A stretch of 64,000 bases of DNA from Clostridia bacterium (GCA_900758165.1 CAAEQN010000114.1:9809-73808), one strand, 5' to 3'; numbered from the stretch's first letter, positions 23,480-26,154 are shown. Translations and numbers: made by a program. Notes: a model not told the origin generated them from the sequence alone.

Positions 23480-25006
23480 ATGGAAACTTTTACAAAATTT
23501 TTATATGAATTTTTAGGCCAGTTTTTTTCTGGAGTAGGAATGATGTTTAGTGGAATATGGAAAGGCCTACAAAGAGCGGTCGATATAAAATCATATACAG
23601 GAATAATAGATAATTACAAAAACGATTTTTCAATGCCAGAGTGGGCTTTGGTAGTAATTGCTATAGGACTATTATTACTTATATTTGTGCTAATAGGACT
23701 TTTAATATTTTTTACAATAAGAAAATATGGAAAAATAAGAAAAAAAGCAGTAGATCAAGATGCTTTACTACAAGAAGTTGCTTCACTAAATGGACAAGTA
23801 GCCAGACTTGTAAAGGAAAAAGAAGATATATTAGCAATGAAAGTATCTCAATTGGGTCTAAAGCCTAATGAAAGTCCAGAGATAGAGCAAAATCAAGAGG
23901 AAAAAGAAGAAGATCCAAGTGGACCAGATACAAGGTTTGCAAAACTTACTGCTATAGACAGAGAATTTGAAAACTACAAAGTAAAAAATTATGGAAATAC
24001 ATTTACTCTTCCAGAATTATGCGATCATTTTAGAAATTTTGCAGCATCTAGATTGCACTTATATTATACAATAGATATGATGAGGCTTTTTATTTCAGCT
24101 CTAGCCTCAACAAAGCTAGTTATTTTACAAGGTATATCTGGAACAGGTAAAACATCACTTGCTTACGCATGGGGAAAATTTTTAAAACATGATTCGTGTG
24201 TGGCATCAGTACAGCCATCTTGGAGAGATAGAACAGAATTATTCGGCTATTTCAACGAATTTACAAAAAAGTTTAATGAAACCGAAGTACTAAAAGAAAT
24301 GTATTTAGCAGGATATACAGATGACGTTTATACAGTAATACTGGACGAGATGAACATTGCACGTGTTGAATATTATTTTGCAGAAATGTTATCTATTTTG
24401 GAAATGCCAAATAAAGATGAATGGATTATAGAATTAGTGCCAAGTAGTTGGAAAACAGATCCTAAAAAACTAATAGAAGGAAAATTACGAATACCATCAA
24501 ACATGTGGTATATAGGAACAATCAATAATGATGACTCTACTTTTATGGTTACAGATAAGGTTTACGATAGAGCTATGCCAATAGATATAAATGATAAAGG
24601 AAAAGTATTTGAACCAGTAGACATGCCGGCTATGGATATAAATTATACATATTTAGATAAATTATTTTCAACAGCTATGCAAGAAAATCAAGTTTCAGCA
24701 GACACTTTAGCAAAAATAGAATTAATGGATGATTATACAATAAAACATTTTCGTATAGCTTTTGGTAACCGTATTGTTGCTCACATGAAAAAATTCGTTC
24801 CAGTATATGTTGCTTGTGGAGGAGATGAGATAGCTGGGGTAGACTATTTCATGGCAAAAAAAGTATTAAGAAAATTTGAACAATTAAACATTTCATATAT
24901 AAGAGATGAAATTACACCATATATAGACTTTTTAGACAAGACATTTGGAAAAGGCAAAATGAAAGAATGTGTAGAATACATGACTAGATTAAAGAAACTA
25001 ACATAG
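23480..25006 (+). CDS. Membrane-anchored McrB-type AAA+ (GTPase-like) protein
   Basis: 508 aa. It has an N-terminal hydrophobic segment plus a clear TM (WALVVIAIGLLLLIFVLIGLLIFFTI) and a coiled coil, followed by Walker A LQGISGTGKTSLA and Walker B VILDEMNIARVEYYFAEMLSILE. The McrB-like signature WYIGTINNDDSTF compares with IGTMNTADRS in McrB. Confidence 0.7.
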   Translation: METFTKFLYEFLGQFFSGVGMMFSGIWKGLQRAVDIKSYTGIIDNYKNDFSMPEWALVVIAIGLLLLIFVLIGLLIFFTIRKYGKIRKKAVDQDALLQEVASLNGQVARLVKEKEDILAMKVSQLGLKPNESPEIEQNQEEKEEDPSGPDTRFAKLTAIDREFENYKVKNYGNTFTLPELCDHFRNFAASRLHLYYTIDMMRLFISALASTKLVILQGISGTGKTSLAYAWGKFLKHDSCVASVQPSWRDRTELFGYFNEFTKKFNETEVLKEMYLAGYTDDVYTVILDEMNIARVEYYFAEMLSILEMPNKDEWIIELVPSSWKTDPKKLIEGKLRIPSNMWYIGTINNDDSTFMVTDKVYDRAMPIDINDKGKVFEPVDMPAMDINYTYLDKLFSTAMQENQVSADTLAKIELMDDYTIKHFRIAFGNRIVAHMKKFVPVYVACGGDEIAGVDYFMAKKVLRKFEQLNISYIRDEITPYIDFLDKTFGKGKMKECVEYMTRLKKLT

Positions 25007-25020
25007 AGTTAGGAGGTAAC

Positions 25021-26154
25021 ATGGAAAATTCAATAGTAGATATATATCAAAATGCAAGTCGAAAAAAAAGTGAGAAATTTAAAGAACATATAAATTCAAA
25101 TCTACATGTTCAAACAGATATTGAAAATGTAGTAAGAGATACAGATTGGATAGATATAATGGAAGATACTATTCCATATATAGACAATATTTTTCGTGCA
25201 CCAAACAGATTTATAATTAATGAAGAAGAAGTAGTAAAAATAGAACGTGCTAGAAAAATAACAGTTGAAAGTATAAAAAATCTAGCCAAAAATACAAGCT
25301 TTATACAAGAAGTAGATAAAAAAACTGGTGATGTTAAACCATCTAAAATTTTAAACATAGACAAAGAAGAAAGTTATGACACTTATGAAAATAGACTTAT
25401 TTATACACTTATACAAAATATGAAATTCTTCTTAAGTATGAAGAAGAAGTCATTGGAGCAAGTACAAAATGCAGGAAATAAAAATAATAAAAAAATAGAA
25501 TATACAGGAAGCTCAAAAATATCAAATGAAAAAATAGATATAAATATGTCTTTAAATACACAAATGTGTGCAGAAAAGAAAAATAAAGATAAAGAAGAAG
25601 AACCAGACGAATTATTATTAAGAATATCAAATTTAGAGACTAGAATATCAGACTTGACAAATAGTGAAGTATATAAAGTAATAGATAAGAAACATATTGC
25701 ACTTGTGAGGGAACCAATAAAAAAGACAAATGTTGTTTTAAAAAATGTAAATTTTCAATATGCTATGAAATTATGGACATATTTAAGAGACAACATAGAA
25801 GATAGAACAAAAAGTAGCAAAGAAAAGAAGAATTATGAAGATAAAGGAAATTTAAAAAATTTAATGGATGAATCATTCTTCTTAAATTATTTAATAGTAA
25901 GTACTTTAAATAAAAGCAAGGATAAAGAAAACATAGAACAAACTCAAGAAAAACAAAAAGAGATGCAAGAAATAGTAATAAGTAAAATGTTAGAAAAAGT
26001 AATGTCTATGAATAATGAATTATCTGAAAAGCAATTAGAAGATGTTATAAAGGAAAAATACGCTATAATTAAATATAGAAATCAAGCTAACATACAAGAA
26101 ATACAAAAAATATTTAATAAACATATTGATAAATATTTAGAAAAAATAAGTTAA
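25021..26154 (+). CDS. McrC/DUF2357-like partner protein without a recognisable nuclease domain
   Basis: 377 aa, starting 15 nt after the AAA+ gene with RBS AGGAGGT. The motif EESYDTYENRLIYTLIQNM resembles the conserved D-t-p-E-N-R-f block of McrC/DUF2357-type partners. The C-terminal half is K/E-rich coiled coil with no PD-(D/E)xK-like motif seen. Confidence 0.4.
   Translation: MENSIVDIYQNASRKKSEKFKEHINSNLHVQTDIENVVRDTDWIDIMEDTIPYIDNIFRAPNRFIINEEEVVKIERARKITVESIKNLAKNTSFIQEVDKKTGDVKPSKILNIDKEESYDTYENRLIYTLIQNMKFFLSMKKKSLEQVQNAGNKNNKKIEYTGSSKISNEKIDINMSLNTQMCAEKKNKDKEEEPDELLLRISNLETRISDLTNSEVYKVIDKKHIALVREPIKKTNVVLKNVNFQYAMKLWTYLRDNIEDRTKSSKEKKNYEDKGNLKNLMDESFFLNYLIVSTLNKSKDKENIEQTQEKQKEMQEIVISKMLEKVMSMNNELSEKQLEDVIKEKYAIIKYRNQANIQEIQKIFNKHIDKYLEKIS

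Follow-up and report, generated by a model that had tools for sequence, protein, structure and literature searches.

McrBC is the textbook modification-dependent restriction enzyme. In the Escherichia coli system, a finger of McrC plugs the pore of the McrB hexamer and stimulates the hydrolysis of GTP. A large clade of McrB GTPases with an NxD signature was introduced in a single paragraph by Bell, Sahakyan, Makarova, Wolf and Koonin (eLife 2024; PMC11090510), who named it CoCoPALM, reported that coiled coils are usual on both the McrB and the McrC homologues, described the N-terminal domain of the GTPase as FtsB-homologous, noted an association with signal peptidases and deferred the analysis to a future paper. 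No CoCoPALM entry was found in the text-format supplements to that article, and the literature that we searched yielded no follow-up analysis or experiment on CoCoPALM and no PDC-M26 study. The subject of the present report is a gene pair of this type in a 64,000-nucleotide (nt), very AT-rich (~26% GC) stretch of DNA from a Clostridia bacterium (GCA_900758165.1, CAAEQN010000114.1:9809-73808; hereafter, the window). Judged by its sequence, the pair is a CoCoPALM-type module, a kind that is already named and whose function is uncharacterized, and its architecture is accordingly less novel than a preliminary description of the locus had assumed. New beyond the main text of PMC11090510 are an inactivated paralogue of the signal peptidase SipW alongside several active ones, a conserved N-terminal motif in McrB, an additional gene (orf332), a core-gene-like conservation in gut Bacillota and, in relatives, fusions of a GH3 domain to a pseudo-McrB.

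The first gene of the pair (23480-25006, + strand) was delineated as an open reading frame (ORF) and through PADLOC and a family profile, and encodes a 508-amino-acid (aa) McrB-like AAA+ NTPase, the homologue of the CoCoPALM McrB. The second (25021-26154, +), recognized as an ORF and by Pfam, encodes a 377-aa McrC-like partner with a DUF2357 domain and without an active nuclease. Both genes are preceded by a Shine-Dalgarno sequence, that of the McrC gene being AGGAGG five bases 5' of the ATG, and the two genes are separated from their neighbours and from each other by gaps of 39, 14 and 29 nt. A hairpin scan found no terminator-like hairpin on the + strand between 19135 and 27420; a bidirectional terminator-like hairpin (27419-27447, both strands), whose 12-bp stem lies between an A-run and a T-run, marks the end of the co-directional block 19135-27420. 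Homologues are abundant, with at least 8000 for McrB (8000 of 8000 scored candidates at E <= 0.001) and 3081 proteins for McrC, and since they number in the thousands, neither gene is a chance ORF.

The 508-aa protein had been placed in the McrB clade by three motifs, and that placement holds: GISGTGKTS was found at residues 218-226, VILDEMNIARVEYYF at residues 286-300 and WYIGTINNDDSTF at residues 343-355, and the only relatives with solved structures are McrB proteins. The Walker A motif, GISGTGKT (residues 218-225; 24131-24154, +), is invariant in 44 orthologues and aligns with GPPGVGKT of E. coli McrB, while the Walker B motif, VILDEMN (residues 286-292; 24335-24355, +), whose VILDE part (286-290) is likewise invariant in the 44 orthologues, aligns with IIDEINRA of McrB. 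The McrB signature, GTINNDD (residues 346-352; 24515-24535, +), was located by family conservation and consists of N349-x-D351 followed by D352. Across the broad McrB-like family, G218, G221, G223 and K224 of Walker A, D289 and N292 of Walker B, R295, E297, and N349 and D351 of the signature are invariant; E290 is nearly so, and D352 is the majority residue only. R364 is invariant as well and sits in a block that aligns with the RRR stretch of McrB. The signature appears to read N-x-D followed by D, which corresponds to the NxD branch, in which NxD is usually followed by D or E (PMC11090510); NxxD is also readable in this one protein. A profile of the broad family, built from 44 diverse relatives with 28-67% identity, was compared with the whole PDB and matched McrB chains only (6HZ4, 6UT6 and 7VSR; E = 2.9e-6), with an alignment that spans Walker A, Walker B and the Asn/Asp signature. 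The PADLOC candidate-defence model PDC-M26A gave a match of 2.5e-33 within the AAA+ region, over residues 193-316 and one further stretch, and NCBIfam McrB (2.8e-4) and Pfam AAA_5 (0.026) gave remote matches, both below cutoff. As far as these alignments show, the McrB homologue retains every residue required for nucleotide hydrolysis.

The N-terminus of this protein had been described as a hydrophobic segment, a clear transmembrane (TM) helix and a coiled coil in the place of a DNA-reader domain. The TM helix, the coiled coil and the lack of a DNA reader were all confirmed; the first hydrophobic segment proved to be weak. Residues 1-27 (23480-23560, +), delimited by Kyte-Doolittle hydropathy and orthologue conservation, are predicted to form a weakly hydrophobic helix with the motif FxxFLxEFLGQFF, and their hydropathy of at most 0.95 indicates that there is no clear second TM helix. 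Within this segment F7, Y9, F11, L12, Q14, F15 and G18 are invariant in the 44 orthologues, relatives at 40-67% identity and a lineage of GC 0.40 discussed below share the motif, and AlphaFold2 predicted a helix over residues 2-22 with a pLDDT (predicted local distance difference test) score above 80. Beyond a loop, the TM helix itself (residues 55-80; 23642-23719, +), assigned by Kyte-Doolittle hydropathy and the positive-inside rule, is unambiguous, with a 19-residue mean of up to 3.45, and leads into the basic patch RKYGKIRKK, in which six of the nine residues are K or R. Its hydrophobicity is kept among orthologues, its sequence is otherwise poorly conserved, and the N-terminal 54 residues are far more conserved. 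Heptad windows placed a short coiled coil at about residues 84-125 (23729-23854, +), ahead of a variable acidic linker (residues 126-150); the heptad-rich windows cover residues 85-123, and L103, L110 and I117, spaced by seven residues, are invariant. AlphaFold2 modelled residues 52-122 as one unbroken helix, whose pLDDT stays above 80 as far as about residue 80. Pfam-type family scans gave no match to a DNA-binding family in the N-terminal 150 residues. The positive-inside rule and the enzyme's need for nucleotide require a cytoplasmic position for the AAA+ domain, just under the membrane; residues 1-54 may be either outside the cell or part of a hairpin, and some McrB relatives have two clear TM helices. 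A comparison of the N-terminus with FtsB returned an hhalign probability of 1.3%, which is not significant, and a local match of 28 residues to the coiled coil of E. coli FtsB at 32% identity. There was no DivIC Pfam match among the families listed for the 44 McrB orthologues, and the FtsB homology was not taken up, since the similarity falls short of significance, although the short local match is suggestive.

The partner protein was expected to have an McrC/DUF2357 N-domain and to lack a nuclease, and both expectations were borne out. Pfam DUF2357 (PF09823) scored 45.5 bits against a gathering score of 23.3 (E = 7e-12) and was present in 43 of 43 orthologues. Its core, which would include a pore-inserting finger, occupies residues 54-154 (25180-25482, +), and the D-T-Y-E-N-R block lies at residues 120-125 (nt 25378-25395). 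In all 81 sequences compared, which come from species-level genomes, R59, K109, K115, E117, T121, Y122, E123 and N124 are invariant, and by homology with E. coli McrC these residues would lie in the stretch equivalent to the pore-entering finger. The AlphaFold2 model of the McrC monomer has an overall pLDDT of 63.8 and is poor over residues 61-116, as might be expected of a segment that folds only inside a ring. No nuclease family was detected in any of the 43 McrC orthologues, even at E <= 1, and PADLOC gave no match for McrC. Nor was there a PDB sequence or fold match: Foldseek returned nothing below E 0.04 (TolC-like helices only), a weak negative given the pLDDT of 63.8.

The C-terminal portion of McrC had been called a K/E-rich coiled coil. 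Heptad-rich windows were indeed found at residues 185-228 and 307-347, and they correspond to short coiled coils with long helices in the model; the description does not fit residues 218-295 (25672-25905, +), where per-column conservation revealed a block that is nearly invariant in close orthologues. The sole D...ExK-like pattern in the protein is D261...E277-x-K279. Position 277 is N in the window protein, and its commonest residues across the 81 sequences are E (19), I (10), N (9), D (8) and T (7). Because this acidic position is variable, the alignment excludes an active PD-(D/E)xK site in McrC; the conserved block is possibly the relic of an inactivated nuclease with a degenerate fold. 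Neither a nuclease fold in the partner nor a soluble topology of the AAA+ protein was found. The pair does not constitute an ordinary McrBC restriction system, and a role in defence is unlikely.

When compared with the described systems, the pair shows every architectural feature of CoCoPALM, namely an NxD McrB GTPase with a TM and coiled-coil N-terminus, an McrC with coiled coils and no working nuclease, and an association with signal peptidases, since four SipW-type genes occur in the window locus; the FtsB homology was not confirmed (hhalign 1.3%). With canonical McrBC (E. coli; 6UT6, 6HZ4 and 7VSR) it shares the AAA+ fold family, the two Walker motifs (A and B), an Asn/Asp signature that follows sensor 1, an Arg conserved at the RRR stretch and a DUF2357 N-domain in the partner. 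It differs from that system in that its McrB has a TM anchor instead of an N-terminal DNA-binding domain and an NxD rather than an NxxD signature, its McrC has no PD-(D/E)xK nuclease, and its genes are fixed members of a chromosomal operon and not defence-island genes. CoCoNuT (CnuB/CnuC) and PDC-M26 systems resemble it in the NxD branch, in the PDC-M26A match to the AAA+ region and in a coiled coil fused to the GTPase, whereas the window pair is membrane-anchored and lacks a long soluble coiled coil and HEPN or other nuclease partner genes.

The genes that surround the pair encode a SipW-dependent secretion setting. Directly downstream of McrC, 26184-26792 (+) encodes an active SipW-type (archaeal/endoplasmic reticulum-type) signal peptidase I, with a TIGR02228 match at 3.6e-23, above cutoff, and with both catalytic residues, Ser and His, retained by 78 of 78 orthologues. 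Two further active paralogues are located at 16688-17269 (+; TIGR02228 2.3e-24, Ser and His kept by every orthologue) and at 20373-20897 (+; TIGR02228 2.7e-22, Ser and His in 38 of 38). The fourth SipW-type gene (19135-19671, +) encodes a SipW-fold pseudo-peptidase that matched SipW models at 4e-9, below cutoffs. Its Ser column is occupied by E, D, N, K and others and its His column by A, G, D and others, so that the catalytic residues are lost in nearly all species; the gene nevertheless heads the core block, is kept in 66 of 80 loci, and is a candidate for a pseudo-peptidase assembly factor. Three proteins encoded by 19682-20335, 20900-21472 and 21489-22418 (all +) combine a signal-anchor with a YAxF-type motif (tYAlFes, arYes or grYiy), and four further predicted secreted proteins, encoded by 26734-27420 (+), 27471-28070 (-), 28183-28977 (+) and 29168-30130 (+), carry the conserved motifs fAWFIY, YAKY and sYAWFT. 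A 320-aa member of the seven passes TIGR04088 (SipW-dependent signal peptide) at 19.7 bits against a cutoff of 19, and the other six families have a hydrophobic N-terminal region and a conserved YAxF/Y-type motif. The seven sort into paralogous groups by hhalign; a search for a PDB match to the 320-aa family found none, and PADLOC gave no match for the proteins of 21489-22418, 22442-23440, 26184-26792 and 26734-27420. Such an arrangement recalls SipW fibre operons (tapA-sipW-tasA of Bacillus subtilis; sipW-bsaA-bsaB-bsaC of Clostridium perfringens, PMC11580942) in having a dedicated signal peptidase together with SipW-type secreted proteins. Those operons have no NTPase, whereas the window has one, along with four SipW paralogues (one inactive) and no detectable TasA homology. 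A 17-bp perfect palindromic hairpin (28986-29025), terminator-like on both strands, was also observed between the genes for the 264-aa and 320-aa secreted proteins, and may attenuate or separate the expression of the last subunit gene.

A scan of one genome per species recovered 158 encoded relatives of McrB, and the locus counts given here refer to the best 80 of these. In these 80 the McrB protein is full-length and 68-89% identical to that of the window; the sources are low-GC gut Bacillota, uncultured and known as metagenome-assembled genomes (MAGs) with the labels Clostridium sp. CAG:780, CAG:567, CAG:914, CAG:628 and CAG:609, Tenericutes/Mycoplasmatota, and Bacilli or Erysipelotrichaceae. 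We take these CAG bins to belong to reduced-genome Bacilli orders such as RF39. A survey of the contexts of homologous pairs, as the preliminary description had proposed, showed the same SipW and secreted-protein setting in these loci. In essentially all loci that are long enough, the order is a SipW-fold gene, a secreted 309-aa protein, orf332, McrB, McrC, SipW and four secreted proteins, often ending with a giant repeat protein, and the identical locus occurs in independent metagenome assemblies. McrB was present in 80 of 80 loci with a median identity of 73%, McrC in 80 of 80 (49%), orf332 in 79 of 80 (32%) and the downstream SipW in 77 of 80 (50%); McrB is thus the most conserved gene of the locus, at a median of 73% compared with 32-55% for its neighbours. 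In the window the locus is flanked by genes with housekeeping roles (pyrG, rqcH/fbpA-like, ftsK, a beta-CASP RNase and a yabG-like peptidase), and a scan of flanking ORFs turned up no mobile-element genes. The full TM architecture does not occur in the plasmid and phage collections, where only relatives of the AAA+ domain were found, at no more than 38% identity. Given the housekeeping flanks, the fixed synteny and the absence of the architecture from those collections, an origin in a prophage, plasmid or defence island was rejected. One Bacilli MAG (L062) carries an extra McrB-McrC copy upstream of the conserved block; duplication of the pair thus occurs occasionally.

The wider McrB-like family comprises 8217 relatives among 50%-identity representatives, and its architectures were surveyed in the best 150 of these. 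One architecture has one or two TM helices and a short N-terminus, as in the window McrB; a second has four TM helices in 550-700 aa; and a third has no TM helix and a long, CoCoNuT-like N-terminus in 700-870 aa. The four-TM class (representatives P0282-P0388) is sizeable, with Walker A GLSGTGKS and predicted N-terminal TM helices. A metagenome scan seeded with distant two-TM members turned up two kinds of locus. The first belongs to a human-gut lineage of GC 0.40, in which secreted proteins, SipW, McrB, McrC and further secreted proteins follow one another in that order. McrB of this lineage (511 aa, with the same N-terminal motif) is 46% identical to the distant query (P0258), and its McrC has 848 aa, a long coiled coil with strong matches and no nuclease family. 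Since these loci carry SipW and secreted proteins, the SipW link extends beyond the first lineage. The second kind, of GC 0.33-0.57 and from several lineages (L088-L122, L144), has the arrangement McrB (one TM)-McrC (~600 aa)-McrB (two TM), flanked by a BspA-type leucine-rich repeat protein (1365 aa), a transglutaminase/YDG/AgI_II protein (945 aa) and further surface proteins that are large and membrane-anchored. Directly upstream of the McrB-McrC(-McrB) genes in such loci (L097:6443-9874, L121:289-3570 and L091:6730-9864) are fusions of ~1100 aa that join extracellular GH3_C and Fn3-like domains, two TM helices and an inactivated McrB-like domain in which Walker A is lost (phmmer 1e-13 to the window McrB). 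Because these fusions connect an McrB-like domain through TM helices to extracellular domains, the ring would be physically coupled across the membrane, and at least some rings seem to contain membrane-crossing subunits. The common denominator of the membrane-anchored McrBC modules in the loci examined is large surface or secreted proteins. A soluble 419-aa protein that consists of the McrB C-terminal lid region only was also seen (L110:6856-8115).

Several outputs other than restriction had been suggested for a membrane-tethered pair without a nuclease. Of these, export suits the context best, as the pair lies within an operon of SipW and secreted proteins; abortive infection is disfavoured by the fixed synteny and the strong conservation. 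The explanation that we put first, at a little under an even chance, is that an McrBC machine has been repurposed as a membrane-tethered NTPase device coupled to the assembly, release or remodelling of a surface fibre. Six McrB subunits would form a ring hung from the membrane by their TM and coiled-coil stalks, and a single McrC would serve as its asymmetric central shaft. The hydrolysis of GTP, proceeding sequentially, would move the McrB TM and N-terminal segments, which would act on the signal-anchored fibre subunits or on a platform of SipW and pseudo-SipW, and the result would be to drive or gate the extraction, cleavage, polymerization or release of subunits. For the C. perfringens operon, the published proposal is that the signal peptide keeps monomers anchored until, following strand exchange, they are cleaved by SipW (PMC11580942). 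The logic may be likened to that of the type IV pilus or archaellum, in which an ATPase (PilB/FlaI), a platform (PilC/FlaJ) and a prepilin peptidase cooperate. The parallel is one of analogy only and consists in a cytoplasmic hexameric NTPase, a signal peptidase and anchored precursors; the parts are not homologous, as the McrB clade is unrelated to PilB/GspE, SipW is unrelated to the aspartic peptidase PilD, and the types of signal peptide differ. A more far-reaching version is possible and, to our minds, doubtful: that the ring derived from McrBC powers, or is the platform for, a previously unrecognized NTP-coupled, Sec/SipW-dependent filament pathway. Such a pathway would be a new class of pilus assembly in Gram-positive-type bacteria, built from a domesticated restriction enzyme; the pseudo-peptidase would act as an assembly factor, the pathway would be core to a lineage that is abundant and uncultured in the human and animal gut, and in related variants extracellular glycan-binding domains would be coupled to the same ring.

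What is at issue is a membrane-bound GTPase-plus-shaft engine that would neither bind nor cut DNA and whose GTPase is the most conserved gene of a putative surface-fibre operon in uncultured gut species. Should it drive or gate the assembly of fibres, it would clearly exemplify the domestication of a defence machine for the biogenesis of the cell surface and be the first NTP-dependent route for SipW-type filaments, and would offer a handle on the adhesion and colonization structures of reduced-genome gut Bacillota that are not yet cultured. The conserved residues and the gene set listed here make a named but unstudied class directly testable.

A number of observations weigh against a role in fibre assembly. 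The seven secreted neighbours had no Pfam match to TasA/camelysin (Peptidase_M73), and hhalign against B. subtilis TasA gave probabilities of at most 1.4% with a query sequence that was checked against PDB 8AUR; their identity as TasA was rejected at the sequence level, and the term fibre subunits is derived from SipW and the signal peptides and not from homology. The papers on TasA-class and other donor-strand filaments that we found in our literature search make no mention of an AAA+ protein, and BsaA of C. perfringens oligomerized spontaneously in E. coli (PMC11580942), so a motor is not an obvious requirement. Both ring formation and the insertion of McrC are argued from homology to McrBC, and the AlphaFold2 model of the McrB AAA+ core is unreliable, with a pLDDT of ~25 over residues 237-374, probably because the alignment of 44 orthologues (76-89% identity) was too shallow. 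No SipW was detected in the loci of GC 0.33-0.57, and since some relatives thus do without it, the generic role of these modules may be broader than pilus assembly. On the experimental side, there has been no work on CoCoPALM and no NxD-type McrB has been characterized (PMC11090510).

Some of the same observations can be accommodated by a transmembrane signalling or regulatory switch, in which the ring would sense the state of the external fibre or extracellular ligands by way of its N-terminal and TM segments and, in relatives, of sensor subunits, and GTP hydrolysis with McrC would set the state of fibre production or adhesion. The fusions of GH3_C and Fn3-like domains to an inactivated McrB-like domain resemble the sensor subunit of a heteromeric ring, the conservation of the N-terminal 54 residues, far above that of the TM helix, suggests a specific binding surface, and a switch would agree with the silence of the TasA-class filament papers on any AAA+ protein. 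However, family scans of McrB, McrC and orf332 detected none of the domains that could provide an output (DNA-binding, kinase or cyclase), a GH3 fusion protein is missing from the window locus, and its 1092-aa protein (orf1092) is not similar to the fusions. We regard such a switch as rather unlikely, and fibre assembly remains the explanation that we prefer.

An anti-phage role, in which a system derived from type IV restriction or abortive infection became fixed beside the fibre operon, guards a phage receptor and kills or arrests the cell through membrane damage, would be in keeping with the overwhelmingly defensive nature of the McrB clade, with the PDC-M26A match of the AAA+ region (2.5e-33), with the existence of plasmid-borne AAA+ relatives and with the predicted defensive function of the nearest relatives, the CoCoNuTs (PMC11090510). 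Yet no nuclease or effector domain was found, McrC has no PADLOC match, and the same gene order and orientation in 80 species at 68-89% identity is unlike the patchy, fast-evolving content of defence islands. Together with the housekeeping flanks, the lack of mobile-element genes in the ORFs scanned and the absence of the TM architecture from plasmids and phages, this makes an anti-phage role improbable. Finally, a cell-division or envelope factor, whose FtsB-like segment would target the NTPase to the divisome of reduced-genome bacteria while the link to fibres is only positional, is very improbable, for although the N-terminal domain has been called FtsB-homologous (PMC11090510), resembles FtsB over 28 residues (32% identity) and has ftsK ~9 kb downstream, the similarity is not significant (hhalign 1.3%) and no DivIC match was among the Pfam families listed, the FtsB coiled coil is extracytoplasmic when that of McrB must be cytoplasmic, and the genes in conserved synteny encode SipW and secreted proteins rather than division proteins, ftsK and pyrG being unlinked in the other 80 genomes.

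Directly upstream of McrB, orf332 (22442-23440, +) encodes a predicted cytoplasmic protein that holds the same position in 79 of 80 loci. Its family is limited to this lineage (208 matches) and had no Pfam or informative PDB match, the one PDB match being a chance match to a designed protein (E = 0.63). Two identities were considered for this protein and rejected: a degenerate EAL (cyclic di-GMP) domain, which was matched by only one of 26 orthologues (E = 0.023), and a pseudo-McrB, for which the hhalign probability to McrB was 0.1%. Farther upstream, the ORF at 12100-16656 (+) encodes a giant 1518-aa protein of GG-rich repeats (IYGGG, NIYGGSN and similar) with no Pfam match; 43 of 80 genomes carry a relative of it next to the locus, on one side or the other, and it may be an adhesin or a fibre component. 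The 1092-aa and 525-aa proteins (8321-11599 and 6740-8317) likewise recur beside the locus in many genomes, on varying sides. Lastly, the YabG-like sporulation peptidase (5741-6550, +) scored 254 bits with TIGR02855, just below the cutoff of 270, and the presence of such a gene in a gut bacterium of 26% GC with an apparently reduced genome hints at a sporulation heritage.

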